Position numbers and translations under genes: made by a program | Part shown: positions 14,333-61,784 of the stretch, piece after piece | Position numbering within the stretch: position 1 is the stretch's first letter | How the letters are laid out: every line of letters starts with the position of its first letter | Source: a virus | Reading direction: 5' to 3' (one strand) | Virus record (IMG/VR): IMGVR_UViG_3300023223_000630 | Coordinates: 1-64,000 of that record | DNA: 64,000 nt | Notes under the pieces: model-generated | The model's database searches: none | Told to the model about the DNA's origin: nothing | What the model saw: only the letters and a program-made list of their open reading frames with translations

Positions 14333-14935
14333 ATGGTACGATTAATTAAATATTGCAAAATAGAAGAATGTAATAGAAAAACATGTGGAAGGGGGTTATG
14401 TAATACACATTACGCACAATTTAGAAAGCATGGGGAAATAATAAATAAAATAATAAAAATATATGATAAATTTCAAGGATGTAAAATTGATCACTGTAAA
14501 AGAAAACACCATTGTAAAGGATTATGTAAAAAACACTATGATCAATTACCACAAAGAAGAAAAAATAATATTAAACGTGTAAAAAAATGGAGAGAAGATA
14601 ATCCTGAATGGGGTAAAAATTATTATCAAAAAAATATAGAAAAAATACTAGAAAATCAAATAAAACACTTAAAAAAACTAGGATATAAAATCAATATGGA
14701 ATACAAAGAAGTAAAATATACTTTATTAACATGGTCACGAATAATAAGAAAAAGAGACAATTATAAATGTGTTATTTGTGGAAGTCAAGATGATTTAAAT
14801 GCACATCACATATTTCCTAAATCCAAATATCCTGCATTAATGTTTAATATAAATAATGGTATAACTTTATGTAAAACTCACCACAAAGAAACAGAAGGAA
14901 AAAAATTGGAGCATATGTGTTATAATGGCAACTAA
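14333..14935 (+). CDS. HNH homing-type endonuclease (paralog A)
   Basis: C-terminal CVICGSQDDLNAHHIFPKS...NNGITLCKTHH; N-terminal Cys/His boxes (CNRKTCGRGLCNTHYAQFRKHG); roughly half identical by eye to 17853-18476. Confidence 0.85.
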   Translation: MVRLIKYCKIEECNRKTCGRGLCNTHYAQFRKHGEIINKIIKIYDKFQGCKIDHCKRKHHCKGLCKKHYDQLPQRRKNNIKRVKKWREDNPEWGKNYYQKNIEKILENQIKHLKKLGYKINMEYKEVKYTLLTWSRIIRKRDNYKCVICGSQDDLNAHHIFPKSKYPALMFNINNGITLCKTHHKETEGKKLEHMCYNGN

Positions 14936-16051: not shown

Positions 16052-17293
16052 ATGCCAAGTACAACTGTCTCTGCTAGTTCTGTATATGTAGAATTTGGAT
16101 ATGAGGGTGAATTTGGGGGTGGAAGCACATCATTCCCTATGCTTTTTGGAAAAGAGCAAAAATTAACAAGTTTAGAACTTAACGTAAATCAACTGCCATT
16201 AGGACAATTATACAGTCCGGAAATCGAATGTTATGTATATGGAAAAAATGAAGGAAGTGCAACAGTAGAATATGTATTGGCTCAGCCATTTAATTTATCA
16301 AGTATATTTGGAGCACCGTTCAGTGAAGAAACTGGAGTATCATCAGGTATATTTACCCATGAATGGACTTCTGATCCAGACAATCCAACTCTGGACTTGG
16401 AATCATCAGTTGTAGCTACAACTGTAACTGATCCTGGAACCAATCATATATTAGGTGAATCTATAATTATTGTAGCCTCATCCGCTGAAGATCCTAATGC
16501 TGATGCAGCCGGATTTGTTAGTGAAATAGGTGGATCAGGAGAATTAAAAAAGATTACACTAACAAATAGCGGTTATGGATACACAAGTGCTCCAGCAATA
16601 ACTTTTACTAATGGATCCGGTTCTGCTGATGCAATCATATCACCTGTAAGTACAAGAAACATAGATACAATGGCATTAGAGATAGGAATTAAATCATCTC
16701 TTGATGCCGGTGATGACTTTGTAAGAAATATTGCCGGAGCAATATCACCTACCATGAGTTTTAGAATGTCATTAAATGAACCAATAAGAGTAACACAGGA
16801 ATTAAAATGGGGTATTGAAACACCAAGTGCAACAATAGATACAAGTATTGGAACAAATCTAGATTTTACACCATATGTATTTGCAGATGCAGAGATTAAA
16901 GTAAACGGATCAGTAGTAGCAACAGTACAAGATTTCGATTTAAACATTAACAGCAATGCAGAACTATTATGGGAATTAGGAACTGCTAATGCTTCTGGAG
17001 CATGGAGGAAAATTCTGGAAATGACCGGAAAACTAAATGTAACTGTAAAAGACGCTTCATTTTATAATATAGTAGCCGGAAGATCAGAACAGACTTCCAT
17101 GACTGTAACTATTACAAACGGATTATCTGGTACTGCTGAAAAATCTATTGTAATGGTTTTTGCAGGAATAGGATTTGGAACACATAACAATACAGGAATA
17201 GAACCGGGAGAACTAGTATTACAAAATATGGATTTCCAAGCAAGAACCGTAAAAATCACTGCAACAAATGATACTAAATCACAGCCAATATAA
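16052..17293 (+). CDS. major tail protein (putative) with inserted GxGY module
   Basis: 413 aa, own promoter-like AAAACTTTAAAAATA upstream, precedes the chaperone/tape-measure pair; contains ELKKITLTNSGYGYTSAPAITFTNGSG. Confidence 0.5.
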   Translation: MPSTTVSASSVYVEFGYEGEFGGGSTSFPMLFGKEQKLTSLELNVNQLPLGQLYSPEIECYVYGKNEGSATVEYVLAQPFNLSSIFGAPFSEETGVSSGIFTHEWTSDPDNPTLDLESSVVATTVTDPGTNHILGESIIIVASSAEDPNADAAGFVSEIGGSGELKKITLTNSGYGYTSAPAITFTNGSGSADAIISPVSTRNIDTMALEIGIKSSLDAGDDFVRNIAGAISPTMSFRMSLNEPIRVTQELKWGIETPSATIDTSIGTNLDFTPYVFADAEIKVNGSVVATVQDFDLNINSNAELLWELGTANASGAWRKILEMTGKLNVTVKDASFYNIVAGRSEQTSMTVTITNGLSGTAEKSIVMVFAGIGFGTHNNTGIEPGELVLQNMDFQARTVKITATNDTKSQPI

Positions 17294-17852: not shown

Positions 17853-18476
17853 ATGAGAACGTGTAGTGTTGAAGGTTGTAATAGAAAACGTAGAGAATTA
17901 ATATATTGTCATACACATTATGAACAATTTAGAAAACATGGAAAAATTACAAAAGTTATAAGAATATGTGATGGATCTCAGGGATGTAAAATAAAAAGTT
18001 GTAATGGAGAACATTATAGTTTAGGATATTGTAAACCATGTTATAATCAGTTACCAGAAAGAAAAGAAAAAGATAGAAAACGTGTTAGAAAATGGATTAA
18101 AGAAAATCCGGATTATGGTAAACAATGGAGAGAAAAAAATCTAGAAAAAGAGAGAGAAAAAACTAGAAGATGGAATAAAGAAAACCCAGAAAAAGTATTA
18201 AAAACTCAAATAAGATATCTAAAAAAATTAGGAGATAAATTTAACATGAATCAATATCAAATAAAAACTGCTTTAATGAGTTGGTCTAAAACCATAAGAA
18301 AGAGAGACAATGATAAATGTATAATTTGTGGCAGTAAAGAAGGATTAAATGCTCATCATACATTATATAAAAGATATTATCCGGAATTATCATTAAATAT
18401 CAACAATGGGGTAACATTATGTAAAATACACCACAATGAGGTACATGGTAAAAAACTAAAGTTTATAAATATATGA
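17853..18476 (+). CDS. HNH homing-type endonuclease (paralog B)
   Basis: CIICGSKEGLNAHHTLYKR...NNGVTLCKIHHNEVHG; same N-terminal Cys/His boxes as 14333-14935; sits between chaperone and tape measure. Confidence 0.85.
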   Translation: MRTCSVEGCNRKRRELIYCHTHYEQFRKHGKITKVIRICDGSQGCKIKSCNGEHYSLGYCKPCYNQLPERKEKDRKRVRKWIKENPDYGKQWREKNLEKEREKTRRWNKENPEKVLKTQIRYLKKLGDKFNMNQYQIKTALMSWSKTIRKRDNDKCIICGSKEGLNAHHTLYKRYYPELSLNINNGVTLCKIHHNEVHGKKLKFINI

Positions 18477-18489
18477 AACATTTATATTT

Positions 18490-19569
18490 ATGTCCTCAGC
18501 TCAGCAGTACAGAATCACGATTGGACTTGATGATTCTGAATTAAAAAAGAAACTAGCTAATCTACAAAAGGGATTCACAAATGCTCTATTTGGTGGTGGA
18601 TCTGCCGGTGGTAAAGGAGGAGGTATGGCAGGAATGAAAAATCTAGCAAAATTGGGTGCTATCGCTACTGGAATTGGTGGAATACTCATAGGAATAAACA
18701 AGCTCGTAAGCATGTCAGTACAATCTTCACCCGTATTAGCAACAATGCTTAAACTTTTGAATATTGGGATCCTATTTATTTTGCGTCCGATCGGCGATTT
18801 TCTCGGATTTTTCCTACGACCACTAATCATATTATTTATCAGGCAAGTTGCATTACCATTCTACAAACAATGGGCTCCTATAGGAAGACAATTAGGTGCA
18901 TGGCTAGGTGGTGCAGCAGCGAAAGCTATAACTAAAGATCCAATAGGAATATCATTAGGAGCTTTGGGAATAGGTGGTATTATTATTAATTGGCTTATAA
19001 AAGAACTTGCAAATGTAAAATTCCCCGAATTTGATATAAAATTACCAACATTTGATGATATAAATAAAGCATGGGATAGTATAGCTTTCCAGTTTAATGT
19101 ATTACAGAGAAGAATTACAAACTTTGTACCACAGATCCCGGGAAAAATATTTGATGGACTAGTGAGTTTGGGTGGATTCATCAGTCAAGGTGCAACAGAT
19201 ATTTATACCAATCACATATTACCAGCTTTTGCAACTGTAAATGAATTCTTTAACACAAATGTAATGCCAATAGTTCAGAGTATAGGTACATTATTTCAAG
19301 GAATATTATCTGATTTAACAACTACAGTATCTAATGCGTGGGATGGAATAGTATCATTCTTCCAGGGAATATTAGAATGGTTCCAAAACATTCCATCATT
19401 TTTCTCTGATCTGTTTGCACCAAAACAACAGGCATCAAGTGGCCCGTCATCTTCAGGTGGAAGCACATTCAATTTCTATGATACAGTTGTACAGGGTGCA
19501 GAAGGAGCATTTGAATTCGGGGAAGATCTCATAAATAATATACAATCTGCATTGGCAGGAGGTAGATAA
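18490..19569 (+). CDS. tail tape measure protein (short, 359 aa)
   Basis: Gly-rich plus hydrophobic central spans (GIATGIGGILIGINKLV, ILFILRPIGDFLGFFLRPLIILFI); helical N-terminus; position after the chaperone. Confidence 0.6.
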   Translation: MSSAQQYRITIGLDDSELKKKLANLQKGFTNALFGGGSAGGKGGGMAGMKNLAKLGAIATGIGGILIGINKLVSMSVQSSPVLATMLKLLNIGILFILRPIGDFLGFFLRPLIILFIRQVALPFYKQWAPIGRQLGAWLGGAAAKAITKDPIGISLGALGIGGIIINWLIKELANVKFPEFDIKLPTFDDINKAWDSIAFQFNVLQRRITNFVPQIPGKIFDGLVSLGGFISQGATDIYTNHILPAFATVNEFFNTNVMPIVQSIGTLFQGILSDLTTTVSNAWDGIVSFFQGILEWFQNIPSFFSDLFAPKQQASSGPSSSGGSTFNFYDTVVQGAEGAFEFGEDLINNIQSALAGGR

Positions 19570-23119: not shown

Positions 23120-23845
23120 ATGAAAGCAAATCCCATAATAATAGGATCATTTTATCAGGATCAAAAAGCCGGGGAACGCATGATTAAAAATTTGTCAGAG
23201 TTTGGTATACCTTCAATATGGAGTAATGGGAGAGTTGAAGGATTTACTAAAATAAACAACTCTGATGTGTCAACTGATAATTTAAAGGAAATAATACTAT
23301 CATATCCAAATACCAAAGTATATGATATAGGATTGACATATCCAGGATATGCAACTAACTATTTAATGCAATTGGCAGCAGATATGGGATACACTCACAC
23401 ATTTTTACTTTCATGTGATGAATATCTGGAAGGAGATTGGAATCTTTTTAAAACAAATCTTGAAAAAATACCTTCTGATAAACCATCTAAGATGAGACTA
23501 CCCATTGTAGAACATAATCCTACTCATAACAAAAACGTACTCCATATCACTGAACGTGTAGTGTATATGCCTCAATATGTCTTTATACAAAAAATTCATT
23601 GGTTATACTATCATAATTATTACCGAAATCCGGAAATTTTAAGTGATACTAAAAGCAAACTTGTATTGGGTCTTACTGTACATCATGATGATTCCATACG
23701 ATTATTAAAAAGAAATAAAATGATGGATAAATATCAAAAACAACGAAGAGTTATAGAAGTAAAAGAATTAATACAAGTATTGGCAGATGAACATTTGTTG
23801 AGAACATTTAAATCCTCAAAACAAATATTGTCTTATAATGTTTAA
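23120..23845 (+). CDS. glycosyltransferase family 2-like protein, tentative
   Basis: VSTDNLKEIILSYPNTKVYDI...NYLMQLAADMGYTHTFLLSCDEYLEGDW resembles the GT2 nucleotide-binding and DxD region. Confidence 0.35.
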   Translation: MKANPIIIGSFYQDQKAGERMIKNLSEFGIPSIWSNGRVEGFTKINNSDVSTDNLKEIILSYPNTKVYDIGLTYPGYATNYLMQLAADMGYTHTFLLSCDEYLEGDWNLFKTNLEKIPSDKPSKMRLPIVEHNPTHNKNVLHITERVVYMPQYVFIQKIHWLYYHNYYRNPEILSDTKSKLVLGLTVHHDDSIRLLKRNKMMDKYQKQRRVIEVKELIQVLADEHLLRTFKSSKQILSYNV

Positions 23846-24518
23846 TCATATAGATTTACCAAAGTCAACAATACCTGTTAAAAAATTTAATGATGATTTA
23901 GGTCATTGGTGTGTGGATGAGAATGGGGAAAAATTCCCAAGTATCACAACTTTACTTAAAATAAACTCTAAAAAAGGAATTGAAATCTGGAGATATAAAA
24001 TAGGTGACAAAGAAGCTGATAGAATTAGTAAAAATTCAATGACTAGCGGTACAATAATGCACCAATACTGTGAACATTATCTAAAAAATGAAAATTTTAA
24101 CATATTGCATTCTAAATATTTTGAAAAAGATCCATACACATTGTACAATAACTTGAAACCAGAACTTGACAAGATAGACAACATATCATTACAGGAAACA
24201 TTCATGTTTAGCAAGGAGTTAGAGGTATGCGGAACTGCAGATGTTATAGGTGAATATGACGGTGTACCAAGTGTGATAGACTTTAAAAATTCCCGGAAAC
24301 CAAAATATCCAAGTCAATGTAAGAATTATTTCCAACAGTTATACGCATATGGAGTAATGGCCAAAGAGTGTTATGGAATAGACATAAAACAAGGTGTAGT
24401 ACTAATGGCAAACTGGAATGATACTATACGACCATATGTAATAAATTTGGAGGACTGGAAGGAACCATTATGGGAGAGTATGATAAAATGGTCTATGAAT
24501 GAGTTAGGTTTTGAATAA
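23838..24518 (+). CDS. PD-(D/E)XK exonuclease (Cas4/lambda-exo-like)
   Basis: GTIMHQYCEHYL, CGTADVIGEYDGVPSVIDFKNS (D...DxK), QQLYAYGVM (QxxxY). Confidence 0.6.
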   Translation: MFNHIDLPKSTIPVKKFNDDLGHWCVDENGEKFPSITTLLKINSKKGIEIWRYKIGDKEADRISKNSMTSGTIMHQYCEHYLKNENFNILHSKYFEKDPYTLYNNLKPELDKIDNISLQETFMFSKELEVCGTADVIGEYDGVPSVIDFKNSRKPKYPSQCKNYFQQLYAYGVMAKECYGIDIKQGVVLMANWNDTIRPYVINLEDWKEPLWESMIKWSMNELGFE

Positions 24519-24548: not shown

Positions 24549-25061
24549 GTGGATGATTTAATTCTTACAAAAGATAATAAAATTAAAACAGATGGTAGAA
24601 AAAAAGCCGGAAAAGCTAATGCTAAATCATTAAAATATGCTAGAAAACTACCAATAAAATGTAACGATTGTATTTACAGACCTAAAGAAGAAATGGGAAA
24701 TGGTGTATGTACTGTATATAAAAGAGATGGTATATGCTCAATAAGAAAAGACCTGGCAAAACTCACTGACAGTCTTGATGGAGAAAGAAACGTAGACAAA
24801 GTATCTATAATGATGCAGGATACTTTTGAGAGTAATTATGAGATTTTAAAATTTTATGAGGCATTGGAGCATCAAATGGGTATAATAAACCCTGACAGAA
24901 TAAAATTACTAAATTCCCTTACAAACATGGGGAAAATAATCAATGAAATGTCTGCAAAAACAATCAAAACAATTGAAGAAACACACACTCTATCAGATGA
25001 AAAGAAGGAAGAAATATCAAGGATGGTAAGGATTGAAATTCAAGAATCTACCCCCGATTGA
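24549..25061 (+). CDS. terminase small subunit, tentative
   Basis: 170 aa, basic N-terminus, helical, directly upstream of and overlapping the large terminase; GTG start in the track. Confidence 0.35.
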   Translation: MDDLILTKDNKIKTDGRKKAGKANAKSLKYARKLPIKCNDCIYRPKEEMGNGVCTVYKRDGICSIRKDLAKLTDSLDGERNVDKVSIMMQDTFESNYEILKFYEALEHQMGIINPDRIKLLNSLTNMGKIINEMSAKTIKTIEETHTLSDEKKEEISRMVRIEIQESTPD

Positions 25062-26481
25062 AACCATAGGTGATCATCCAGAAGAATATGCTAAAGTAAT
25101 AACAAAATGTATAGCAAGTCCGGTATATTTTGTAGAACAGTTTTTGAATTTCAAGATTCATGAGTATAACAAGGAATTCATAGACTGTATGGACAGGTTT
25201 ATTGTATATGTTACTGGAAGACAGGTTGGAAAATCAACTAGTGCTGCACTAAAGGCAATTCATTTTGGATATTTTGCTCCACTCTTTGCTAAAAATGTGG
25301 AGGATAACGGGGAATGCAATGTAGTTATCATATCCCCTACAGAATATCAGTCAATACTTATCTTTAGAAAAATAAGATCATTCATACACAAATCACCAAC
25401 ATTATCAAAATGTATTGTAAGAGAAACAAAAAGAGATATAGAAATTAGATGGTTTGATGGCGGGGGAACTACAAACTTTATTGTCAGACCAGTAGGTGAT
25501 AACGGTGAGAGTGTACGAGGAATTACAACACACTTTGCAATTATAGATGAATGTGCATATATCCCACAAAAAGTATTTGAAGCATTCCTACCATCAGCAA
25601 TGACTACCAGACCAAAAATACTCTACACATCAACACCTGGAGGAAAGTTTGGTAATTTCTGGGAAGCAACTGAAAACTGGTACAAATCATATGAAAAAGG
25701 AAAACTAAAAGAAGAAAGAGAAAAAACAGATGTTCTACAATGGGTTAAATTCCATGTAACATCATTGGATAATCCCGATACTGCAAGTGATCCAGTATTT
25801 CTTAAAATGCTTGCAACTACTACAAAATCAGCACAGGAGCAAGAAGTGTATGGATTATTCAGGGAAGGCGGTAACAGTCTAATATCCCATAATTTATTAC
25901 AGGATTCACTACTCCCAATTAAAAGACCAAAAACATTTGATTATTATGATATGGGAGTAGATACATCAGGTAAAGGTCAGGATGAGACAGTAATTATAAT
26001 ATTCGGGGTAAAAGATGGCATCGTATATCCAGTACATGTTTACACTGAAAATACAACAGAACAGCACGAATTAGTAAAGAAAATAAAATCACTACATGAT
26101 AAGGAATGCCATTGCAGACGTATATACATAGACGAAACCGGAATGGGATATGAGTTAGTTGCACTATGTTATAAGAAATACTCTTCACTAAATGCATTTG
26201 GAATAAATTTCCTAGCTGAAAAAACAAATATCTATGTAAATCTAGTAAAACTATTTGAGGATAGAAAGATAAATCTTACACTATTAGAGGAACATCATAG
26301 AGACAAACTGGTAAAACAAATTACACATATGTATTGGGATTATGGAAAGTATAAGGATCAGAAACCTAAAGTAAGAACTGATTTTGATGATGATTATAGT
26401 GATGCTTCTGCGTTAGGCTGTTTTGGTCAATTGCGGGGAGCCAGTTTTCAAGTGTTGCCTGATGAATTTGTATGGGGATAA
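25033..26481 (+). CDS. terminase large subunit
   Basis: Walker A YVTGRQVGKST, Walker B FAIIDECAYI; C-terminal RNase H-like nuclease motifs GVDTSGKGQDETVIIIFG and IYIDETGMG. TTG start needed (frame opens at 25030). Confidence 0.85.
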   Translation: MKFKNLPPIETIGDHPEEYAKVITKCIASPVYFVEQFLNFKIHEYNKEFIDCMDRFIVYVTGRQVGKSTSAALKAIHFGYFAPLFAKNVEDNGECNVVIISPTEYQSILIFRKIRSFIHKSPTLSKCIVRETKRDIEIRWFDGGGTTNFIVRPVGDNGESVRGITTHFAIIDECAYIPQKVFEAFLPSAMTTRPKILYTSTPGGKFGNFWEATENWYKSYEKGKLKEEREKTDVLQWVKFHVTSLDNPDTASDPVFLKMLATTTKSAQEQEVYGLFREGGNSLISHNLLQDSLLPIKRPKTFDYYDMGVDTSGKGQDETVIIIFGVKDGIVYPVHVYTENTTEQHELVKKIKSLHDKECHCRRIYIDETGMGYELVALCYKKYSSLNAFGINFLAEKTNIYVNLVKLFEDRKINLTLLEEHHRDKLVKQITHMYWDYGKYKDQKPKVRTDFDDDYSDASALGCFGQLRGASFQVLPDEFVWG

Positions 26482-26513: not shown

Positions 26514-26912
26514 TTGTCAATTGAAGAAAGATTTTGGGACAAAGTAGATAAAACTGACACATGTTGGATTTGGATTGGATCCATTTCTAAGAGTGGATAT
26601 GGAAAATTTACATTAAATCAAAAACCAAGTTATGCTCATCGTGTATCTTATGAATTAATTAAGGAGAAAATCCCTCAAGGATTACAAATTGATCACCTAT
26701 GCAGAAACAGAAAATGTGTAAATCCTGATCATCTGGAAGCTGTAACTCATAAAGAAAATATAGGAAGAGGATTGGTTGGATTTCTGACAGGTCTTAAACA
26801 ACGTGCTAAAACTCACTGCCCACAAGGACATGAATATACAAAAGAAAATACATATGTATACCCAGATGGAAGACGTGATTGTAAAATTTGTAGAAAAAAT
26901 CAAAGAAATTAA
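26514..26912 (+). CDS. HNH endonuclease (HNH_3-like)
   Basis: SGYGKF..YAHRVSYEL...IDHLCRNRKCVNPDHLE plus C-terminal CPQGHEY..RDCKIC zinc module; TTG start. Confidence 0.75.
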   Translation: MSIEERFWDKVDKTDTCWIWIGSISKSGYGKFTLNQKPSYAHRVSYELIKEKIPQGLQIDHLCRNRKCVNPDHLEAVTHKENIGRGLVGFLTGLKQRAKTHCPQGHEYTKENTYVYPDGRRDCKICRKNQRN

Positions 26913-29671: not shown

Positions 29672-29910
29672 TGAAAAAAAGAACTATATCCATACTTGAT
29701 CTTCCGGAAGTTACAAAGGTAATATCAACAATAGAAAAAATCAGAATATCATTAAAAAAAGGAAAAAAATCACATGTACAACTAATCAATGATACGGGGT
29801 GTGGAACTGGAAATATAACAAACAATACAAGAACAATGCTACGTAACAATCAAATTAAAAAAGTAACATGTAAATGCTGTAATATAACGGAACTGTATGA
29901 ATTAATATGA
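29671..29910 (+). CDS. hypothetical protein (79 aa)
   Basis: Start and stop both overlap neighbouring genes. Confidence 0.4.
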   Translation: MKKRTISILDLPEVTKVISTIEKIRISLKKGKKSHVQLINDTGCGTGNITNNTRTMLRNNQIKKVTCKCCNITELYELI

Positions 29911-30368
29911 TGATACCACTACATCAACGCAAGAGATCAGAGGCTAGTTTATCTGATGAATATGAAACCCCGGATGACATGTTTGAACAATTATGTAATG
30001 AATATGGAATACACCCACAGATGGATGTTGCTGCTACAAGTAAAAATTTAAAATGCCAATTTCATCTTTCTAAATTTTATGATGCCTTAGAATCAGAATG
30101 GGAATATGATTCTTGGTGTAATCCCCCACATTCCAAAACTAAACAGTTTGTAGAAAAAGCATATGAACAATGGAAGAAACATAATATCGATATATTAATG
30201 ATAATCCCGGCAAATTCATTATGTACTAATTACGCTTTTGATTATATATTAAAAAAAGGAGTTGAATTTCATCCCATATTAGGTAGACCAATATTTTTAG
30301 TAGATGGTGTACCAAGTAAATTTAATTCAAGAAATGGATATTTTGTGGTGATATGGCGAAAAATATAA
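29907..30368 (+). CDS. phage-type DNA N6-adenine methyltransferase (Dam family)
   Basis: DEYETPDDMFEQL, MDVAATSKNLKC, WCNPPHS, ILMIIPANSLCT, GRPIFL. Confidence 0.8.
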   Translation: MMIPLHQRKRSEASLSDEYETPDDMFEQLCNEYGIHPQMDVAATSKNLKCQFHLSKFYDALESEWEYDSWCNPPHSKTKQFVEKAYEQWKKHNIDILMIIPANSLCTNYAFDYILKKGVEFHPILGRPIFLVDGVPSKFNSRNGYFVVIWRKI

Positions 30369-35358: not shown

Positions 35359-35781
35359 ATGAGAAAACATAATCAGGCAAAAAGAAAGTATAGTTACAAA
35401 AATGATGAGATTGATTTGGTAGATATATGTCAATTCATTAGAGATACATTCCCACAATACAAAGTAAAAAGAGAATGGTACATTTTCTGGGGTCATGACA
35501 ATAAAGCTAAAAGTGTATCGTTACGTGTACCAATAGACAACATTTACAGGTATAGGCATCCGGATATTATGATGTTTGAGGATAAGAAATTAATCCTAGC
35601 TTATGAAATTGATGGTGCATATCACAATATAGATGTTGAAGGTACTTTATTGAGAAACCAGGAATATCGGGCAGCCGGAGTACCGTTATTGATATCAAAC
35701 ACTGAGGATAACAAAATTAAAAAGGTTGATATATACGATGATATATACAAAAAGATTAATGACTTTCTTAGTGGTGAGTAA
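35359..35781 (+). CDS. restriction-endonuclease-fold protein (DUF559/Vsr-like)
   Basis: YRHPDIMMFEDKKLILAYEIDGAYH...LLRNQEYRAAGVPLL matches the PD..(E)xDG.H...R pattern of Vsr/DUF559 nucleases. Confidence 0.5.
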   Translation: MRKHNQAKRKYSYKNDEIDLVDICQFIRDTFPQYKVKREWYIFWGHDNKAKSVSLRVPIDNIYRYRHPDIMMFEDKKLILAYEIDGAYHNIDVEGTLLRNQEYRAAGVPLLISNTEDNKIKKVDIYDDIYKKINDFLSGE

Positions 35782-36066
35782 ATGACAAAATTTCTAACAC
35801 ATGTGTCAAAGAAACATGTTACCATTTATAATGAATTATTAGTTACAGTAGCAGGATCAAAACTTGACAAGACAAAAATAATATTTCAGGCCATAAAGGA
35901 ATTTATAGACAGACAAAAAAATGATGAACCACTCATTGTAAACAAAATACACTGGGAAAAATGTTTTGATAACTTGGAAGGCATAAAAGATTTCCAATCA
36001 TTACAACAAGAAATAAATAACCTACAGTTGTATAAGGATAAAGTTGAACGAATCAGATTTAAATAA
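35782..36066 (+). CDS. hypothetical protein (94 aa)
   Basis: Start abuts the previous stop; helical. Confidence 0.45.
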   Translation: MTKFLTHVSKKHVTIYNELLVTVAGSKLDKTKIIFQAIKEFIDRQKNDEPLIVNKIHWEKCFDNLEGIKDFQSLQQEINNLQLYKDKVERIRFK

Positions 36067-38470
36067 ATTACGCAATCGAGGATTAAACGTATTCCCACTT
36101 AAACCAAAGTCAAAGTTTCCTATGGGAACATGGAAAGAGTTTCAAAGTGTACAGTATGATGGTGAGTTCCCGGAAGGATGCAATTATGGTATAGTGTGTG
36201 GTAGTATATCAGGTAACTTGTTTGTATTGGATCTTGATGATATATCATTGTACAAGTACTTTCAGGATTTCCACACATTCACAGTAAAAACCGGGAAAGG
36301 TTATCACCTGTATTTTAGGAGTCATGGATTAAACATACCATCAATGAAAACTGATGATTCCATAGGAAGACACATTGATATAAAATCTGAAGGTGGATAT
36401 GTATTAGCACCTGGTTCAATACATCCAGACACTCTTACACCATATAATATCATAAATGACGTAGAGATTAAAGTTATTGATCCATCACTCATTAAACAAA
36501 GATTGGTAGAAATAGGATTTGATGAGTTTAATGAAAGAAATATTGAGAAAATCAAAGCCGGTAGTACAGAGGGGGATCGTAATAATAACGCATTCAAGTA
36601 TGTTGTATTTGTAGTAAATGAATATGGTCTAAGTGGTGTACCATTAAAGGAAGCATTATACAAGTTAAATGAAAAGAATAATCCACCACTCCCAACATAT
36701 GAATTAGATAATATTTTAGAATCTGCATTAAATTATGTAAATCTACAGGAAAAAATTGACTCTAAAGATCTGGAGATAGAAAGATTTGTTGATGGTGTAA
36801 AGCCACGTTCAATAACAATGCAGGAGATAAACACAAGTTATGAAGGTATACTGGTATCATTTGATGCTATAGTTACTGGAGTGAGTGAAAGATTTACATT
36901 TACAACTGAGGCAGAATTTATTTGCCCCATATGTAGTAGTACGGATACGGGGTATTGTGACGAGTATTACATCATGGGGGAGCCATACTGTAAGGATGAC
37001 AAAAGAAAAATGAATATCATTAATAAAACAAAAATAACTGACTCAATTCAATTACTTAGAATAGAGGAATTTTTAGAAACTGCAAGAGAAAATACACCCG
37101 TAGAGTATGATGCAGAAATTATAGGTGATGATGTCGGGGAGGCATTTATGAGCCAAAAGAAAAGATTCACTGGAAGATTTAGAAGTATATCAGAGAAAGG
37201 TAAACGATATAATAAAATAATATTTCAAATTACATCCATGACTGACTTGGAGCAGACTACCAGTTGTCTACCAAGTGAGGAAGAGTTGATACAATGGAGG
37301 AAAATACCTAACATATTTGAAAAAGTTACAAACAGTATTGCACCTGAAATGCTAATCAACCCACTTATAAAACAGGCCATAATGCTATCAGTTGCAGGAG
37401 GAGTTTCGTTAAATGGTAAACGTGCTGATATACATGTCGCACTACCAGGTGATGCACAATTGGGAAAATCTGAATTATTAAAAGCATTTCATGAATTAAT
37501 CCCCGGAAGTGGATTAACAGTTGGTACACAAAGTACGGGTGTAGGATTAACTGTATCAATGGTAAAATCACATACTGGAGCACTAATACCAAAGGCAGGA
37601 TTTCTCCCAAAGTATACAGGTTATCCCGTGTTCATTGATGAGGGTGATAAAATGAAACCTGAAGATATGGATGCAATGCTACAATGTATGGAACAACAAA
37701 TAGCAGTAGCTACAAAGGCAGGATACCCAAATGTAAAGTTTGCAGCAGTTAATAGTATTGTGTTTGCCGGAAATCCAAAGCACGGGAAATTCATTAAAAA
37801 TATACCAATAATGCAACAGTTAAAAATGTCTGAACCATTCCTTACACGATTTGATATTATATTTTTGGTACTTGATGAGAATAATGAGGAACTAGATGAC
37901 AAAATAAGAAATCATATCAGAGAGTATAGAGAGGGAAATCCAAATTTTATGAAAAAAGATGAGTTACAAAGATATTTCACATATGTAAGGACTTTAAGAC
38001 CAATCATACCAAAATCATTAGAGCCTGGAATAGATGCATTACACAAAAAAATGCGAAAGCTAAACACAGAACAATCCGGAATAAACATTGGAATGAGACA
38101 GTATTATGGATTAAACAGACTAGTAACATCATGTGCTAGCTGTAATTTACGAGAAGAGGCAACACAAGAAGATTTAGATATCGTAAAAAGTATAGTATCA
38201 GCAGCACTAAAATCCCTTGATATGAATCTTGAAAGCGGGCAAGCAAGAGATATAATAACTAGCACAAAAAATACAAAATCCAAATGCTTTGATGTAACGT
38301 ATAATGGTATATGTGATAGTGAGGGAACGATAAATAAAGATGAGTTTATCATAGCATTATCCAAGACTGACTTTTACACTGGTATTACTGCAGAAACAAT
38401 ATGGGATGGATATGTAAAAATGGGTAAAGTCATTCTATTAAATGATACAGGTAGGTATAGACTGGTATAA
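36044..38470 (+). CDS. PrimPol - PriCT - MCM helicase fusion protein
   Basis: The N-terminus carries PrimPol motifs FVLDLDD, GYHLYF and IDIKSEGGYVLAPGSIH, followed by a PriCT-like segment (DRNNNAF..NNPPLPTYELDNILESA) and a Cys4 module (CPICSS..YCDEYY..YCKDD). The C-terminal MCM core has IKQAIMLSVAGG, Walker A GDAQLGKSELLK, Walker B VFIDEGDKM, CMEQQIAVATKAGY, VFAGNP and LTRFDIIFLVLD. TTG start. Confidence 0.8.
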   Translation: MNESDLNKLRNRGLNVFPLKPKSKFPMGTWKEFQSVQYDGEFPEGCNYGIVCGSISGNLFVLDLDDISLYKYFQDFHTFTVKTGKGYHLYFRSHGLNIPSMKTDDSIGRHIDIKSEGGYVLAPGSIHPDTLTPYNIINDVEIKVIDPSLIKQRLVEIGFDEFNERNIEKIKAGSTEGDRNNNAFKYVVFVVNEYGLSGVPLKEALYKLNEKNNPPLPTYELDNILESALNYVNLQEKIDSKDLEIERFVDGVKPRSITMQEINTSYEGILVSFDAIVTGVSERFTFTTEAEFICPICSSTDTGYCDEYYIMGEPYCKDDKRKMNIINKTKITDSIQLLRIEEFLETARENTPVEYDAEIIGDDVGEAFMSQKKRFTGRFRSISEKGKRYNKIIFQITSMTDLEQTTSCLPSEEELIQWRKIPNIFEKVTNSIAPEMLINPLIKQAIMLSVAGGVSLNGKRADIHVALPGDAQLGKSELLKAFHELIPGSGLTVGTQSTGVGLTVSMVKSHTGALIPKAGFLPKYTGYPVFIDEGDKMKPEDMDAMLQCMEQQIAVATKAGYPNVKFAAVNSIVFAGNPKHGKFIKNIPIMQQLKMSEPFLTRFDIIFLVLDENNEELDDKIRNHIREYREGNPNFMKKDELQRYFTYVRTLRPIIPKSLEPGIDALHKKMRKLNTEQSGINIGMRQYYGLNRLVTSCASCNLREEATQEDLDIVKSIVSAALKSLDMNLESGQARDIITSTKNTKSKCFDVTYNGICDSEGTINKDEFIIALSKTDFYTGITAETIWDGYVKMGKVILLNDTGRYRLV

Positions 38471-38733: not shown

Positions 38734-39008
38734 ATACTATAGTATCATAATATTATATATCATGGGTGAAGAACTATACCAATTTAACAAATATATAAAA
38801 AAGAAAAATGTTAATAATCTAGATGCTGAGGATGCATTAGGTATTCATGAAGATAACTGTTGTAATTGAGTACAATTATTACATGTGATATAACTTGAAT
38901 ACTTTCTAACAAAGATCTCCTTACCACATTTTCTACAATTTTGTATTATTAATGTCATTTATACCCATGCAAATACTGTTAAATATTATATATAATATAT
39001 CTCTTTAC

Positions 39009-39572
39009 ATGCCTAACCACAACAAACAAAAAGGAACCAGGTACGAAAATGATTTTAAACACGCTTTGCAGATGTTATCCTTTGAGTGTATTAGGGCATA
39101 TTCATCCATTGGTACTGCTGATTTGATATTTAGTCCATCATGGAATTACAAAAAGAATTCCCGGACTTTATTAGTACAATGTAAGAATCAAAGAAATGAT
39201 GATTATCTATCCCCGTTTGAGAGAGCACACATTGATAATTTACAGCAAAGAAATGCCGGGATGGTAATAATAGCATTTAAAAGATCAACAAAATGTTTCA
39301 TTAAAATCTGGGAATCAAATGTAATACAAAGTTTTGAAGAGTTTGTACTAGAACAGTATGGAATATCATGTGAGTATTCAAAGTTATTAAAAAATTATAA
39401 TCAGCACAAGAGGCCAATTCATTTATATCCTTTAGAGAAAGAAATATATACAAAACAAGATGGAAGCCAGGGAGAAAAACCAATTGCTCCCTTTCAAGAT
39501 CTGTATGCAGTAGATGTATGGTATCCACATATCGGGGAACACTTTAATGAGGCATTCAATAACAAAAAGTAA
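39009..39572 (+). CDS. Holliday junction resolvase, archaeal Hjc-like (PD-(D/E)XK)
   Basis: KGTRYENDFKHALQMLSFECIRAYSSIGTADLIFSP...LLVQCKN fits Hjc (kG..fEr.....gf...R...S...D......l.vEcK). I prefer ATG 39009 because the track start 38952 lies inside a TATA-like tract. Confidence 0.6.
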   Translation: MPNHNKQKGTRYENDFKHALQMLSFECIRAYSSIGTADLIFSPSWNYKKNSRTLLVQCKNQRNDDYLSPFERAHIDNLQQRNAGMVIIAFKRSTKCFIKIWESNVIQSFEEFVLEQYGISCEYSKLLKNYNQHKRPIHLYPLEKEIYTKQDGSQGEKPIAPFQDLYAVDVWYPHIGEHFNEAFNNKK

Positions 39573-39784
39573 TGGAATTTTCCGGAACCTCATGGATATC
39601 TCATGTAAAGTACAATGAGGATACTAAAGCAATGTCAGTTACCATGAAAGGGAAAAGTAAAAATGTATATGAAATGTCAGATGTTCCATATGATGTATAC
39701 ATGGAATTTAAAAAATCCTCATCCCGTGGAACCTATTTTAATCGTAACCTAAAGGGTAAATATCAGCATGCGTTCTTCACCTAA
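39572..39784 (+). CDS. KTSC domain protein
   Basis: SWISHVKYNEDTKAMSVTMKGKSKNVYEMSDVPYDVYMEFKKSSSRGTYFNRNLKGKY matches the KTSC pattern (s.i..v.Y......l.v.f..g..Y.Y..VP..v...f..a.S.G.yfn..ik). Confidence 0.65.
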   Translation: MEFSGTSWISHVKYNEDTKAMSVTMKGKSKNVYEMSDVPYDVYMEFKKSSSRGTYFNRNLKGKYQHAFFT

Positions 39785-39952: not shown

Positions 39953-40227
39953 TTAATCCAGATGACTTTAAGGTAATATGGTGTGGTAAAACACCCGGAA
40001 ATGGAACAAGGTTAAAGGAAGAACTAATGATATGTTATGATTTAAAACAAGCTATTATATCTGCAATAGAGGTATGTCATAAATATGCAGATAATATAGA
40101 TAATGGAGCAATAGAAAGATCTAGGCAGCTTGATAATGCTATTTTACTCCAGACGTTACTAGAACAATCCGGAATTCCTACACTAATTACTGACTTTAAT
40201 AAACCGGAGGATGTATTACCTAAATGA
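39949..40227 (+). CDS. hypothetical protein (92 aa)
   Basis: Track ORF; ends in the first CTAAATGACAG junction. Confidence 0.5.
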   Translation: MINPDDFKVIWCGKTPGNGTRLKEELMICYDLKQAIISAIEVCHKYADNIDNGAIERSRQLDNAILLQTLLEQSGIPTLITDFNKPEDVLPK

Positions 40228-40355
40228 CAGATAATTCAAAGAGTAACTTGACTTACTTAGACTTTGAAAATATTATGGCAGTAGTAGAACAATGTAATAT
40301 TGATGAGGGATTAACCGATAGTATTAGCCAAGCGTTAAAGGTGTTCACTAAATGA
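40224..40355 (+). CDS. mini-ORF s1 (43 aa)
   Basis: MTDNSKSNLTYLDFENIMAVVEQCNIDEGLTDSISQALKVFTK; begins and ends in the CTAAATGACAG junction. Confidence 0.4.
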   Translation: MTDNSKSNLTYLDFENIMAVVEQCNIDEGLTDSISQALKVFTK

Positions 40356-40498
40356 CAGATTTTACAGAATGTTACGAGAGGTTAGAAGAAGAAATTAAGG
40401 CTACTGAAAGTTTGATTTCAGAAGGCGATACAACCAATCTAACAATGACAGGTTATCTTGAAAATCTAAAATGGCTTAGAGGTGATTTGTCTAAATGA
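40352..40498 (+). CDS. mini-ORF s2 (48 aa)
   Basis: MTDFTECYERLEEEIKATESLISEGDTTNLTMTGYLENLKWLRGDLSK; same junctions. Confidence 0.4.
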   Translation: MTDFTECYERLEEEIKATESLISEGDTTNLTMTGYLENLKWLRGDLSK

Positions 40499-40650
40499 CA
40501 GTTCAGCCAAAGGGGAACGAGATGTGTAGTTGTGCTTGTCATGAATTAGAGGAAAATCATAGTCCTGAAGACTGTTATTGTATGAATGATAAATTACAAA
40601 ATAGTTTTGATAGATGGATTGATGAACAAGGGGGTCTTCTAACTGAATAA
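40495..40650 (+). CDS. mini-ORF s3 (51 aa), Cys/His-rich
   Basis: MTVQPKGNEMCSCACHELEENHSPEDCYCMNDKLQNSFDRWIDEQGGLLTE. Confidence 0.4.
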   Translation: MTVQPKGNEMCSCACHELEENHSPEDCYCMNDKLQNSFDRWIDEQGGLLTE

Positions 40651-42008: not shown

Positions 42009-42089
42009 AAGCACGGGCTCCGTCTAATCTATGGGTGATGATTTCCGGAGTTATAAACCCAAAAAATGGGTTGTACCCTGGAAATTTAA

Positions 42090-42163
42090 TGGACTCGGTG
42101 GGATTTGAACCCACGACTAAGGTATGTTCAGTACCCTGCTCTACCACACTAAACTACGAGCCC
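42090..42163 (-). tRNA. tRNA-Phe(GAA)-like
   Basis: Minus-strand read: GGGCTCG TA GTTT-AGTGTGGTA-GAGC A GGGTA-CTGAACA-TACCT TAGTC GTGGG-TTCAAAT-CCCAC CGAGTCC A. All four stems pair. An AT-rich TATA-like tract lies upstream (42165-42195) and a T6 run downstream. No encoded CCA. C at position 37 is unusual. Confidence 0.8.
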
Positions 42164-42195
42164 ACGAACAAATAAAAATATTATAATTAAAAATG

Positions 42196-47281: not shown

Positions 47282-47366
47282 ATTGTTGTCACATAGACTG
47301 GTAATTGTGCTAACCTTATGAGTTAGAATCTCCACAGATTCGTGGGTTCAAATCCCTCCAACAACG
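47282..47366 (+). tRNA. atypical tRNA-like gene, anticodon UAU, long extra arm
   Basis: ATTGTTG TC ACAT-AGACTGGTAA-TTGT G CTAAC-CTTATGA-GTTAG AATCT-CCAC-AGATT-C GTGGG-TTCAAAT-CCCTC CAACAAC G. There is an A1:C72 mismatch and a T:T mismatch in the T stem. The T arm is one base different from the tRNA at 42090. A TATA-like AAATTATAAAAA lies just upstream. Confidence 0.45.
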
Positions 47367-51278: not shown

Positions 51279-52294
51279 AACATATTACCAAACACTTTAC
51301 GAATTTAAGCGTTTAGTGTGTAACTTACCCATAAGTATAGACATAAAAGAATTATAATACTATTATCATGGGTCATGAAATTAAGCAGATATACAATACA
51401 TTTTGTGTATCATGCGGATCAACTCATACAACCAAGAACGGGAAGAGGAAAATTAAACATGGTGTAACACAAAGGTACAAGTGTTTAGAGTGTGGTACAA
51501 GATTCACCTGGAGAATAGGTTTTGAGAAAAAGCATTACAAAGGTGAGTTAATCACACTAGCAATACAAATGTATTATGCAGGACAATCATTAAGTAAGGT
51601 AGCACATACATTAAAGATGCTTGGTATCTCACCAACAAAGCAAACCATATGGAACTGGATTAACCAATACTCTTCTCGGATCTCCACTTTTTTAGAAACT
51701 GTTCCACCTGATGTCGGGGAGTCATGGAGGAGTGATGAAATGTATACCCATGTTAAAGGTAAAATTTCATATTTATTCATGATGATGGATGACGATACTA
51801 GATACATTCTAAGTCAAGAGTTAGCCAAAACAAAAGAGTATCATGATGCGTATAATTTGTTTAATAATGGTAGAATATTAGCTGGTAAAAAACCAAGTAT
51901 AGTAACTACTGACGGACTAAAGGCATACAAGAAAGCGTTTAACAGAGTATTTTATTCAAACACATTACCCCGAACTTATCATAATAGTATCATTAAACTC
52001 ACCGGGGATGCAAGTAATAACCTAATGGAAAGATTAAACTGTACCGTAAGAGATAGAGAAAAAACTTTTAGAGGTTTACAAAGTTATGATACTCCTATGT
52101 TTAAGGGGTATGTTATCTATTTTAATCATATTAGACCACATACCGCACTTAATGGAATGACACCAGGAGAAAAAGCTAATATCCATATTGAGGGACAAAA
52201 TAAATGGTTTACCCTCATCCAAAATTCAACACTTCAACAGATTTATAAATATGCTATATAAGTATATATTCCGAATTTTCCATATAAAGTATTT
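51279..52294 (+). mobile_element. IS6-family insertion sequence (limits only bounded by neighbouring genes)
   Basis: Contains the transposase gene. I could not find terminal inverted repeats or a clean target duplication. Confidence 0.4.
51368..52261 (+). CDS. IS6-family (IS240-type) DDE transposase with N-terminal zinc finger
   Basis: CVSCGS...RYKCLECGTRF; WRSDEMYTHVKGK.SYLFMMMD, IVTTDGLKAYKKAF, NNLMERLNCTVRDREKTFRG, YFNHIRPHTALNGMTPGE. Confidence 0.75.
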   Translation: MGHEIKQIYNTFCVSCGSTHTTKNGKRKIKHGVTQRYKCLECGTRFTWRIGFEKKHYKGELITLAIQMYYAGQSLSKVAHTLKMLGISPTKQTIWNWINQYSSRISTFLETVPPDVGESWRSDEMYTHVKGKISYLFMMMDDDTRYILSQELAKTKEYHDAYNLFNNGRILAGKKPSIVTTDGLKAYKKAFNRVFYSNTLPRTYHNSIIKLTGDASNNLMERLNCTVRDREKTFRGLQSYDTPMFKGYVIYFNHIRPHTALNGMTPGEKANIHIEGQNKWFTLIQNSTLQQIYKYAI

Positions 52295-60094: not shown

Positions 60095-60505
60095 ATGAAG
60101 GTAAAGATAGTTAATGCCACTATAGATGATACTAGTGATTTTTTTGATAGAGAGAACAAGTGCTTTGGGTATAAGGTTAGATTTGACAAAGAAAAATTGT
60201 ACTCCCGGCTGGACACGTTAATTATGCATGGATATTCTTACAAGGCTGTACATAAGAAAAAGATTGTTGGTCATGTTACATCCTTCATTACACGTACCGG
60301 GGATCTGTTTGTTGATTATTTGTGTGTTGATGTAAAGCGTAAGGGTATAGGTACTTTGTTGTTAAAAAAATTAAGAACTGAAAATCCCCGGAAAACAATA
60401 TATTTATTTACTGATCATACAAATATATCATCAATGTTATTCTATTTAAAGTCCGGATTTGTATTTGATAAAAGAGAAAAAGACAGGATTTACTTTGTGC
60501 TGTGA
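60095..60505 (+). CDS. GNAT-family N-acetyltransferase
   Basis: 136 aa; LCVDVKRKGIGTLLLKKL (R/Q-x-x-G-x-G/A acetyl-CoA motif). Confidence 0.7.
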   Translation: MKVKIVNATIDDTSDFFDRENKCFGYKVRFDKEKLYSRLDTLIMHGYSYKAVHKKKIVGHVTSFITRTGDLFVDYLCVDVKRKGIGTLLLKKLRTENPRKTIYLFTDHTNISSMLFYLKSGFVFDKREKDRIYFVL

Positions 60506-61008: not shown

Positions 61009-61206
61009 TTAGAAATTAAAAAGGTGAATGGTTTTTTTGTATTGTTCTAAATGATGATTGCCTAAATGTATTCTCATCCATCTAAAATCTTCATTTGTTA
61101 CAATCTTTGAACAAAAATTACATTTTAGATCTTCAGAATGTTCAATGGGTGTAAAACATTCTTGTACATACTTGTCATCCCAATCAGTCATAATATCATT
61201 CCCCAC
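61009..61206 (-). CDS. C2H2-type zinc-finger mini-protein (65 aa)
   Basis: CNFCSKIVTNEDFRWMRIHLGNHH. Confidence 0.45.
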   Translation of the reverse strand: MGNDIMTDWDDKYVQECFTPIEHSEDLKCNFCSKIVTNEDFRWMRIHLGNHHLEQYKKTIHLFNF

Positions 61207-61784
61207 TGGTCAGCCATGGCATCAGCTATTCCCTGAAATGTCCTGCTTCTAATCTTCCACCTGTCCTTTCCGGGCGGTGTGTAATGTATTCTCTGTGAGA
61301 TGTTCTTTGGAAGTTTTTTCATTTCCTCTTTAACATCATTTGTAGGTATCAGTTTTGGAAGGTTCTTTAGCCATAAACATGTTGCTTTTCTTTCCAAGTG
61401 TCCGAACTGATATGGTTGGATTATTTGTGTGTATTTCCCGATATTATTTCGGGCATACTTGTGAGGGATTGGATTCTCAAGACATATTTTTTCTATTGGT
61501 GCTTTCTTTAGCTTGTTGAAAAACTCGCACGCATGATCCAGTTTTCCCCATCTTGACTCATCCTTGTGCAGCCAGCATACTCCAGAATTTGCCATGTATG
61601 TACAGTCGGGATGTCCTATCATCATGTCCCAATTTTCATTCAAATGATTTAACACATCATCTTTAATATGCCAGTTTGGATTCCCCTCAGTATCTAAAAT
61701 ATCACATGAATATGCATCATGACCTATTTTTCTAAATGCCTTTGTTACAACCTGTGAAAACTCACAGGCTACTAAAACCTTCAT
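61188..61784 (-). CDS. DNA methyltransferase-like protein (phage ACEFS.../PxCT family), tentative
   Basis: MKVLVACEFSQVVTKAFRKIGHDAYSCDI and MIGHPDCTYMANSG resemble motif I and the PC motif of a phage cytosine-methylase-like family; from memory, not checked. Confidence 0.45.
   Translation of the reverse strand: MKVLVACEFSQVVTKAFRKIGHDAYSCDILDTEGNPNWHIKDDVLNHLNENWDMMIGHPDCTYMANSGVCWLHKDESRWGKLDHACEFFNKLKKAPIEKICLENPIPHKYARNNIGKYTQIIQPYQFGHLERKATCLWLKNLPKLIPTNDVKEEMKKLPKNISQRIHYTPPGKDRWKIRSRTFQGIADAMADQWGMIL

Follow-up and report, generated by a model that had tools for sequence, protein, structure and literature searches.

A predicted primase-polymerase-MCM helicase fusion is a conserved gene of probable tailed viruses of marine ammonia-oxidising archaea

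Can one polypeptide serve a virus as both primase and replicative helicase, and is such a protein the whole replication machine that the virus encodes? The question is raised by the IMG/VR virus record IMGVR_UViG_3300023223_000630, of which we analyzed positions 1 to 64,000 (hereafter the window, that is, the whole stretch of 64,000 nucleotides). At 36044..38470 the window carries a single gene whose predicted product joins a primase-polymerase (PrimPol) domain and a PriCT domain to an MCM helicase. We conclude that the product of this gene probably serves a tailed (Caudoviricetes-like) virus as its replicative primase-helicase, the hosts being Nitrosopumilus-type marine ammonia-oxidising archaea.

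The fused gene lies on the plus strand and is a single open reading frame (ORF) of 808 amino acids with no internal stops, beginning with a TTG codon at 36044 and ending with a TAA codon at 38468-38470. There is an in-frame stop upstream at 36014-16, and the first ATG is codon 27. Because residues 13-26, which precede this ATG, are conserved in homologues (G13, N15, P18, L19, K24, and P26), TTG is the only possible start. The sequence AAGGA is located 6 nt upstream of it, and the start context is identical in a homologue with 94% identity. An internal start at M259, which would yield a helicase-only isoform, was considered and rejected. In the conservation alignment, which comprised 92 relatives of at least 750 amino acids with 28-94% identity (two of them without a PrimPol domain), this residue is methionine in 61 sequences and leucine, isoleucine, or valine in the rest, so position 259 is a hydrophobic core position and not a conserved start. 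The gene and its parts, all on the plus strand, are as follows.

36044..38470, plus strand, whole gene, PrimPol-PriCT-MCM fusion (ORF, Pfam/NCBIfam/PHROG matches, homologue clusters, AlphaFold model)
36044..36523, plus strand, Prim-Pol domain, residues 1-160 (Pfam PF09250, conservation, Foldseek)
36536..36739, plus strand, PriCT_1 helical domain, residues 165-232 (Pfam PF08708, model)
36740..36796, plus strand, flexible linker between the primase and MCM modules, residues 233-251 (model confidence, homologue gaps)
36806..37258, plus strand, MCM N-tier with OB fold and Cys-rich (probable zinc) module, residues 255-405 (alignments, model)
37271..37933, plus strand, MCM AAA+ core, residues 410-630 (Pfam PF00493, alignment to 8x7t and 4fdg)
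37946..38218, plus strand, MCM lid with sensor 2 (R685), residues 635-725 (Pfam PF17855)
38261..38467, plus strand, C-terminal winged-helix-like domain, residues 740-808 (model topology)

A first-pass annotation, made from the sequence without database searches, had described an uninterrupted 808-residue ORF with four parts in order. The ORF and the domain matches bear this out, and each of the motifs it had named was found in the translation where it had placed them.

Residues 61-66, VLDLDD
Residues 86-91, GYHLYF
Residues 111-127, IDIKSEGGYVLAPGSIH
Residues 178-184, DRNNNAF
Residues 214-228, PPLPTYELDNILESA
Residues 294-299, CPICSS
Residues 304-309, YCDEYY
Residues 315-319, YCKDD
Residues 442-453, IKQAIMLSVAGG
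Residues 469-480, GDAQLGKSELLK
Residues 529-537, VFIDEGDKM
Residues 549-561, MEQQIAVATKAGY
Residues 573-578, VFAGNP
Residues 600-607, LTRFDIIF

The N-terminal third is predicted, from profile matches and a structural model, to be a primase-polymerase of the pRN1-ORF904 type with a PriCT_1 helical domain. The Pfam Prim-Pol profile (PF09250) matched residues 11-142 (4.3e-16, 60.2 bits, cutoff 22.8) and was above its cutoff in all 43 family members. The catalytic residues are D63 and D65 of motif I (DxD), H88 of motif II, and D112 of motif III. D63, D65, and H88 are conserved in 90 of the 92 relatives, and position 112 is aspartate in 83 and glutamate in 8. The PriCT_1 profile (PF08708) matched residues 170-232 (1.9e-5, 24.6 bits, cutoff 21.1) and was likewise present in 43 of 43 members, with a best value of 1.7e-12. 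A sequence search of the N-terminal 250 residues against the PDB gave no match; only the fold search did. For the latter, a separate AlphaFold model of residues 1-250 was built (predicted local distance difference test, pLDDT, 86), and Foldseek matched it to pRN1 ORF904 (3m1m, 5.8e-11; 1rni, 5e-10; also 9aam) and to NrS-1 (6a9w, 5.8e-6). The PriCT_1 region was modelled as a three-helix bundle, and 3m1m, including the helix-bundle domain of ORF904, aligned with the N-terminal model across 314 columns.

To describe the whole protein, we used a full AlphaFold model built on 43 family members (mean pLDDT 83.6). It has seven pieces, namely the PrimPol domain, the helical PriCT domain, the linker, a beta-rich OB domain, the AAA+ core, the lid, and a winged-helix-like end. 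Confidence fell below a pLDDT of 50 only in the linker (residues 233-251) and in a three-residue loop (405-407). Among homologues the linker is variable in length and has many gaps, and it stays in frame in all 43 aligned members. The fused protein matched a DNA helicase family (1.9e-69) and a DNA primase family (7e-17) of the PHROGs. Modules attached to D5_N/DUF5906, AAA_25, or DnaB_C helicases (D5-, RepA-, and DnaB-type) share 31-38% identity with the PrimPol-PriCT module, a pattern consistent with module shuffling.

Sequence and fold comparisons indicate that the C-terminal two thirds is a genuine MCM. The earlier annotation had assigned this part to MCM and not to an SF3/D5 helicase, an assignment with which the Pfam, NCBIfam, sequence, and fold matches all agree. 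The top Foldseek matches of the full model are all MCMs (archaeal MCM 8x7t, 1.2e-43), as are the top sequence matches in the PDB (8x7t, 1.5e-47; 4fdg and 6mii, ~4e-42). The NCBIfam MCM model matched residues 246-743 at model positions 88-614 (1.4e-58), with 199 bits against a model cutoff of 940 bits. Profiles of SF3/D5 helicases (D5_N, DUF5906, VirE, and others) gave no match to the fused protein at E<=1 and none in the 43 members at E<=0.01.

In the AAA+ core, the Pfam MCM profile (PF00493) matched residues 413-626 (2.7e-44, 151 bits, cutoff 23.3) and all 43 members. The active-site residues are K475 and S476 of Walker A, D532 and E533 of Walker B, N577 of sensor 1, and the arginine finger R602. 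K475, D532, N577, and R602 are invariant in the 92 relatives, E533 is kept in 90, and position 476 is serine in 80 and threonine in 12. Walker A and B, the helix-2 insert, the presensor-1 hairpin, sensor 1, the SRFD arginine finger, and sensor 2 pair residue by residue with 8x7t and 4fdg. By alignment and model, the helix-2 insert at ~500-525 (GLTVSMVKSHTGALIPKAGFLP) and the presensor-1 beta-hairpin at 549-561 (EQQIAVATKAGY) align without loss to archaeal MCM structures, and K558 of the hairpin is conserved in 87 of 92 relatives. The lid was matched by MCM_lid (PF17855, residues 640-720, 1e-8), and its R685 is conserved in 90 of 92. At the C-terminal end, residues 741-807 were modelled as three helices and then a wing of two strands. 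Conservation is lowest in this domain (median identity 28%), and the order of its secondary-structure elements predicts a winged helix, which would correspond to the "WH" of the described architecture Prim+PriCT_1+MCM+WH.

The N-tier departs from a cellular MCM in two respects. The helical subdomain A is predicted to have been lost, with the PrimPol-PriCT module standing in its position: the MCM_N profile matched none of the 43 members, and when archaeal MCM structures were aligned by phmmer, the match started only at their chain residue ~90-100, corresponding to query residue 238-253. As subdomain A is outside the catalytic core, the C-terminal part is still filed as MCM. The OB region aligns with MCM structures and was modelled confidently as a beta-rich domain; Pfam MCM_OB covered residues 259-352 at 0.0067, under the cutoff for this protein, and matched 25 of the 43 members (best 5e-9). 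The other departure concerns the Cys module (36923-37000, residues 294-319), described previously as a Cys4 module like that of MCM. The cysteines are indeed present, and C294, C297, C305, and C316 are conserved in 100, 89, 68, and 98% of the 92 relatives. The spacing, however, is CX2CX7CX10C and not the canonical MCM CX2C...CX2C, and the canonical fourth cysteine position aligns with D319. Zinc binding by this module is plausible.

We searched for the same architecture in other genomes. A word-indexed search over 5.8 billion proteins uncovered ~65 clusters (90% identity) of 791-870 amino acids with the same four Pfam domains, spanning the entire query at 38-48% identity, and one further cluster at 94%. 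A second search with the MCM part raised the total to ~70 clusters (90% identity), and the same continuous ORF is carried by ~35-40 representatives at the 50% identity level. When 1.84 billion representatives were searched exhaustively with phmmer, full-length matches extended down to 28% identity; beyond the fusions, the ranking continued with stand-alone MCMs of 640-690 amino acids, whose alignment starts only at their residue ~90. Of the 92 long relatives, 90 keep the catalytic residues of the two enzymes, and the domains have diverged to a similar extent (median identity to the query 0.49 for PrimPol and 0.48 for AAA+). The relatives come from independent assemblies (ENA, JGI, Logan, and NCBI). 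The retention of both catalytic sites together with the similar divergence of all domains argues that the fusion is under selection as one gene, and the comparative data identify it as a conserved, predicted replication gene of this virus group. The initial impression that such a fusion is no standard feature of archaeal tailed viruses thus does not hold for this group, given ~70 clusters and both catalytic sites in nearly all long relatives. Members already in databases are labelled by one half or the other: NCBI names one "bifunctional DNA primase/polymerase" and JGI names others "replicative DNA helicase Mcm".

These data bear on two simpler accounts of the gene. Adjacent primase and MCM genes might have been joined through a sequencing or assembly error, but nothing was found in favour of this, and the same ORF recurs in ~70 clusters from independent samples and assemblers with the linker in frame in every aligned member, and we regard this account, already refuted by the comparative data, as having practically no chance of being correct. 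Alternatively, the primase module could be a degenerate DNA-binding appendage that replaces subdomain A, leaving a protein that is only a helicase. The module does sit in the subdomain A position, and Samuels et al. 2009 saw no primase activity in BcMCM, the MCM-primase of a Bacillus cereus prophage (PMC2715239). However, a later study found both primase and polymerase activity in BcMCM (PMC3273815). In the present family, the DxD that binds metal, the histidine of motif II, and the acidic residue of motif III persist in 90 of 92 relatives down to 28% identity, Prim-Pol and PriCT_1 are above cutoff in all 43 members, and the Pfam and PHROG scans found no second primase in the window, so we consider a decayed module very improbable. 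The conserved residues, the equal divergence, and the independent assemblies together exclude an assembly artefact and a decayed primase domain.

A recent capture of a host MCM was also considered as the source of the helicase half and rejected: the nearest named cellular MCMs, from Nitrososphaeria, are only 26-30% identical and, in a crude neighbour-joining tree of the MCM part, lie in a clade of their own, apart from the fusions. The same tree grouped 75 fusions into one clade beside unnamed stand-alone metagenomic MCMs. The deep branches of this tree are very short and leave the monophyly of all fusions and the donor lineage unsettled.

Is the fused protein, then, the whole replication machine that the virus encodes, as the first-pass annotation proposed? 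We called 118 ORFs in the window and scanned all ORFs of at least 55 amino acids against Pfam and selected ORFs against PHROGs. These scans detected neither a DNA polymerase nor a clamp or second primase anywhere in the 64 kb. A profile hidden Markov model of family-B polymerases (PolB) found nothing at E<=1 in the six-frame translation of the window, and tblastn of three relatives' PolB sequences gave nothing better than E = 0.1. The claimed absence of a polymerase, a clamp, and a separate primase from the 64 kb was therefore borne out. The relatives differ in this respect. In 13 of 18 loci, the fused gene is followed, 2-4 kb downstream and on the opposite strand, by a gene for a family-B polymerase of ~800 amino acids (L001, on the same contig as L006, L003, L004, L005, L009, L010, L011, L015, L016, and L032-L035). 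Those of the relatives' polymerases with Pfam domains on record contain an exonuclease domain, and the polymerase gene precedes a conserved KTSC-domain gene in the loci that reach far enough. The five loci without PolB are the window, L002 (whose replicase is 94% identical), L008, L013, and L014. At the place where most relatives hold PolB and small neighbouring genes, the window has only the following.

38734..38951, no strand, short intergenic gap of 218 nt

In L002, PolB is absent within 10 kb downstream. A pattern scan of IMG/VR with the PolB alignment returned PolB-positive contigs and did not return three PolB-less contigs of 48-63 kb; as the scan relied on two short peptide patterns, it could have overlooked a divergent polymerase. 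In a neighbour-joining tree of the replicases, loci without PolB are interspersed with loci that have it. The fused gene is thus the constant part of the replication module and the polymerase a variable one, and the scattered absences suggest repeated loss or gain. As 13 of 18 loci carry PolB, its absence is lineage-specific, and the lineage of the window most likely lost the polymerase. The proposal of a whole virus-encoded machine accordingly holds only for the lineage of the window, and only as absence of evidence for a polymerase, and fails for the group, in which most loci encode one. The protein is most plausibly a primase-helicase whose usual partner is a viral PolB.

Two other explanations for the missing polymerase were weighed. 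The replicase might be self-sufficient, its PrimPol domain priming and also carrying out bulk synthesis behind the MCM ring so that no replicative polymerase is needed. That no polymerase gene was found in the 64 kb would fit, and the PrimPols of pRN1 ORF904, NrS-1, and BcMCM do have DNA polymerase activity (BcMCM, PMC3273815). Yet most relatives keep a full PolB with an exonuclease domain beside the gene, which argues that the PrimPol domain is no substitute for a replicative polymerase, and the replicase tree reveals no obvious difference in the PrimPol domain between loci with and without PolB. As a rule, PrimPol enzymes have low processivity and no proofreading, properties ill-suited to a genome of ~64 kb. 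We consider self-sufficiency unlikely. The genome might instead be a few kb longer than 64 kb, with PolB in the unseen part, given that the window is an exact 64,000-base cut and near-complete relatives measure 62.4-68.2 kb. This is improbable, because in all 13 loci with PolB the gene is 2-4 kb downstream and before the KTSC gene, an interval that in the window amounts to 218 nt. Moreover, neither the 94%-identical L002 nor three more loci on the 48-63-kb contigs missed by the IMG/VR scan have PolB within 10 kb. If the protein is a primase-helicase whose lineage lost its PolB, a further step can be put forward tentatively, as possible rather than probable: a PrimPol fused to a canonical MCM, whose intact N-tier could dock host GINS/RecJ and polymerases, may suffice to take over the host replisome, making a viral polymerase dispensable.

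We compared the protein with known systems that couple priming to unwinding. McGeoch and Bell reportedly described a primase-MCM fusion of a Bacillus cereus prophage in 2005. This precedent, which the first-pass annotation had named, is real and has been biochemically characterised (PMC2715239, PMC3273815). BcMCM is a helicase that assembles as a hexamer and also possesses primase and DNA polymerase activity (Sanchez-Berrondo 2012, PMC3273815); it has 1028 amino acids, is MCM-related only in its AAA+ region, and is missing the typical MCM N-terminus (Samuels 2009, PMC2715239). Like the window protein, it is a single polypeptide with an archaeo-eukaryotic primase-polymerase at its N-terminus and an MCM AAA+ domain at its C-terminus, borne by a tailed virus or prophage. 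By its description, BcMCM differs in being bacterial, whereas the window protein is predicted to have an MCM N-tier with OB fold and probable zinc module, along with the lid and the winged helix. When GenBank phages were searched by tblastn at 1e-5, no Bacillus phage was returned, so BcMCM is probably at best a distant relative. The architecture Prim+PriCT_1+MCM+WH is listed in the PrimQH family of the PrimPol-PV1 supergroup by Kazlauskas et al. 2018 (PMC5862659), who call bacterial MCMs highly divergent. Their example from Geodermatophilus obscurus (ADB76084.1, 813 amino acids) is mobile-element encoded (PMC5862659). Judged by architecture, it resembles the window protein in its identical domain order, nearly equal length, and carriage on a mobile element. 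The two PrimQH examples that we inspected are actinobacterial, whereas the present family is borne by archaeal viruses and its MCM part matches the cellular model at 1.4e-58.

The nearest solved structure to the N-terminal 250 residues, pRN1 ORF904, shares the order of primase-polymerase, helical accessory domain, hexameric helicase, and winged helix. It differs in that its helicase is SF3 and not MCM, and it belongs to a crenarchaeal plasmid and not to a tailed virus. In 2010, Krupovic and colleagues reportedly described stand-alone MCM helicases from viruses and proviruses of archaea. Those of BJ1, TPV1, HSTV-1, HFTV1, MFTV1, and an Altiarchaeum virus are homologous to the MCM part (23-31% identity) and have the same presumed role as the replicative helicase of the virus, but the matches cover 37-61% of the query and none extends into the primase part. 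No tblastn match to GenBank phage and virus records covered more than 61% of the query, and BFVD contained no protein of the same architecture, its best match being MCM-only (560 amino acids). For thaumarchaeal mobile elements, primpol-SF3 fusions and stand-alone MCMs have been described, with no mention of a PrimPol-MCM fusion (Krupovic et al. 2019). T7 gp4 (DnaG-DnaB), vaccinia D5, the phage PrimPol-D5/VirE proteins, and NrS-1 gp28 also couple priming to unwinding in one polypeptide; T7 gp4, D5/VirE, and NrS-1 gp28 use another helicase family, and DnaB-type helicases move 5'->3' on the lagging strand as opposed to 3'->5' on the leading strand. Current understanding is not overturned, since fusions of primase and MCM are already documented along with their activities. 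What is distinct here, as predicted from the sequence matches and the model, is a PrimPol-PriCT-MCM protein of an archaeal virus with a canonical MCM N-tier, unlike BcMCM.

The genes around the fusion are partly conserved. Three neighbours were assigned.

35359..35781, plus strand, 140-residue ORF (tblastn synteny)
38952..39572, plus strand, 206-residue ORF with resemblance to Holliday-junction resolvase (PHROG 244, 3.5e-5, residues 20-86 only)
39572-39784, plus strand, KTSC-domain protein of 70 residues (Pfam 8.3e-11)

Each of the eight relatives compared has a homologue of the 140-residue ORF, at 35-93% identity by tblastn, some hundreds of bases upstream of its fused gene (L001, L002, L003, L005, L008, L010, L013, and L014). 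The window ORF had no Pfam or PHROG match. A Vsr/PD-(D/E)xK-like motif (DIMMF...ILAYEIDGAYH) was seen by eye. The ORF may be considered a candidate nuclease partner of the replicase. Homologues of the 206-residue ORF are located downstream of the replicase in L001, L002, and L008, and its partial match weakly suggests a resolvase-like protein. Every relative compared has the KTSC-domain gene downstream of its replication genes, on one strand or the other. Near the replicase, the relatives L001-L005 and L032-L035 carry variable nucleotide-metabolism and auxiliary genes that are absent from the window, such as PAPS reductase, dGTP diphosphohydrolase-like, NT5C, MazG, an RNA_ligase-family protein, NAPRTase, and ThiF. 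An 11-mer, CTAAATGACAG, occurs three times at 40220-40501, its copies 128 and 143 nt apart, and was considered as a set of iterons. It was rejected, as the copies are the stop/start overlaps (TAAATG) of tandem small ORFs. There are three such ORFs at 40213-40650 on the plus strand, of ~42-50 residues, each starting with Met-Thr and below the usual gene-calling length.

The remainder of the window has the gene content of a tailed virus, with the following features outside the replication module.

124-1128, plus strand, RadA/Rad51 recombinase, full-length archaeal, with N-terminal HhH domain (Pfam Rad51 6.8e-76)
1568-3529, portal
4985-5791, head protease
6566-7849, major capsid protein
14333-14935, 17853-18476, and 26514-26912, plus strand, three HNH proteins
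16052-17293, tail tube
18490-19569, tape-measure-like protein
23838-24518, PD-(D/E)xK exonuclease
25033-26481, large terminase (TerL)
29907-30368, Dam-type methyltransferase
42089-42164, minus strand, tRNA-Phe(GAA)
47282-47366, plus strand, tRNA-Ile, anticodon TAT, 85 nt
51368-52261, plus strand, IS240-type DDE transposase (Pfam DDE_Tnp_IS240 1.3e-12)
60095-60505, GNAT acetyltransferase
61188-61784, second methyltransferase

The radA gene lies directly before the portal gene, and its closest GenBank virus homologues are in haloarchaeal tailed viruses (26-28% identity). Two of the HNH proteins (200 and 207 residues) are paralogous and Cys-rich and interrupt the tail/structural module; the third (HNH_3) adjoins the large terminase on its 3' side, and related HNH copies occur elsewhere in L001 and L008. 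The transposase gene lies amid small ORFs without an assigned function and may be an insertion sequence carried by the virus. The tRNA-Phe gene is located at ~42 kb, where the gene orientation and the cumulative GC skew switch. No integrase was found in the 64-kb window by the Pfam and PHROG scans, and the G+C content is ~32%.

We infer that the window is most of a tailed-virus genome and that the host is a marine ammonia-oxidising archaeon. In GenBank, archaeal tailed viruses gave the best matches to TerL, RadA, and the MCM part, with identities of 23-31% and none close; a search for related loci using RadA gave no match. One relative is on a 68,160-bp contig binned in a Nitrosopumilus metagenome-assembled genome (MAG), and a fragment is in a Thaumarchaeota MAG. 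The nearest named cellular MCMs are likewise those of Nitrososphaeria. Genome sizes of about 62-68 kb are suggested by related contigs in that range, three of which bear names ending in "c".

What is known of archaeal and eukaryotic MCMs, of BcMCM (PMC3273815), and of ORF904 allows a mechanism to be proposed. By analogy, a hexameric ring would move 3'->5' on the leading-strand template with its N-tier first. This would place six tethered PrimPol-PriCT modules on the fork-proximal side of the ring, the site of lagging-strand template exclusion, and they could lay primers at this position and during initiation. The winged helix may aid origin binding or partner recruitment. Primers would be elongated by the viral family-B polymerase in most relatives. 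Thaumarchaea possess both PolB and PolD, and in the window genome these host enzymes might take over elongation, possibly helped by a limited polymerase activity of the PrimPol domain. RadA, the exonuclease, and the possible resolvase suggest that recombination may also feed replication and concatemer processing.

Several points weigh against reading the gene as the replicative primase-helicase of such a virus. Both the geometry with the N-tier leading and the function proposed for the winged helix are borrowed from other MCMs. The putative zinc module departs from the canonical Cys4 at the position taken by D319, and its C305 is conserved in only 68% of relatives. No origin-like repeats and no notable inverted repeat were found near the fused gene. 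The host assignment is based on MAG binning and distant similarity. Finally, with relatives of 62-68 kb, the window may not be the whole genome, and a polymerase may lie outside it.

Ammonia-oxidising archaea are among the most abundant marine microbes, and to our knowledge their tailed viruses are known only from metagenomes. The PrimPol-MCM fusion provides a marker gene for finding this virus group and a compact candidate for biochemistry. Since the window protein is predicted to keep the canonical N-tier that BcMCM is missing, its structure could show how a primase is placed on the N-terminal face of the MCM ring. Eukaryotic replisomes achieve the same geometry by assembling individual proteins (Pol alpha-primase on CMG). 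The extent to which these viruses depend on host polymerases could be tested starting from the patchy occurrence of the neighbouring polymerase gene. If a viral polymerase is indeed dispensable, the protein would be a natural minimal system for studying how a primase-bearing MCM recruits a cellular polymerase.

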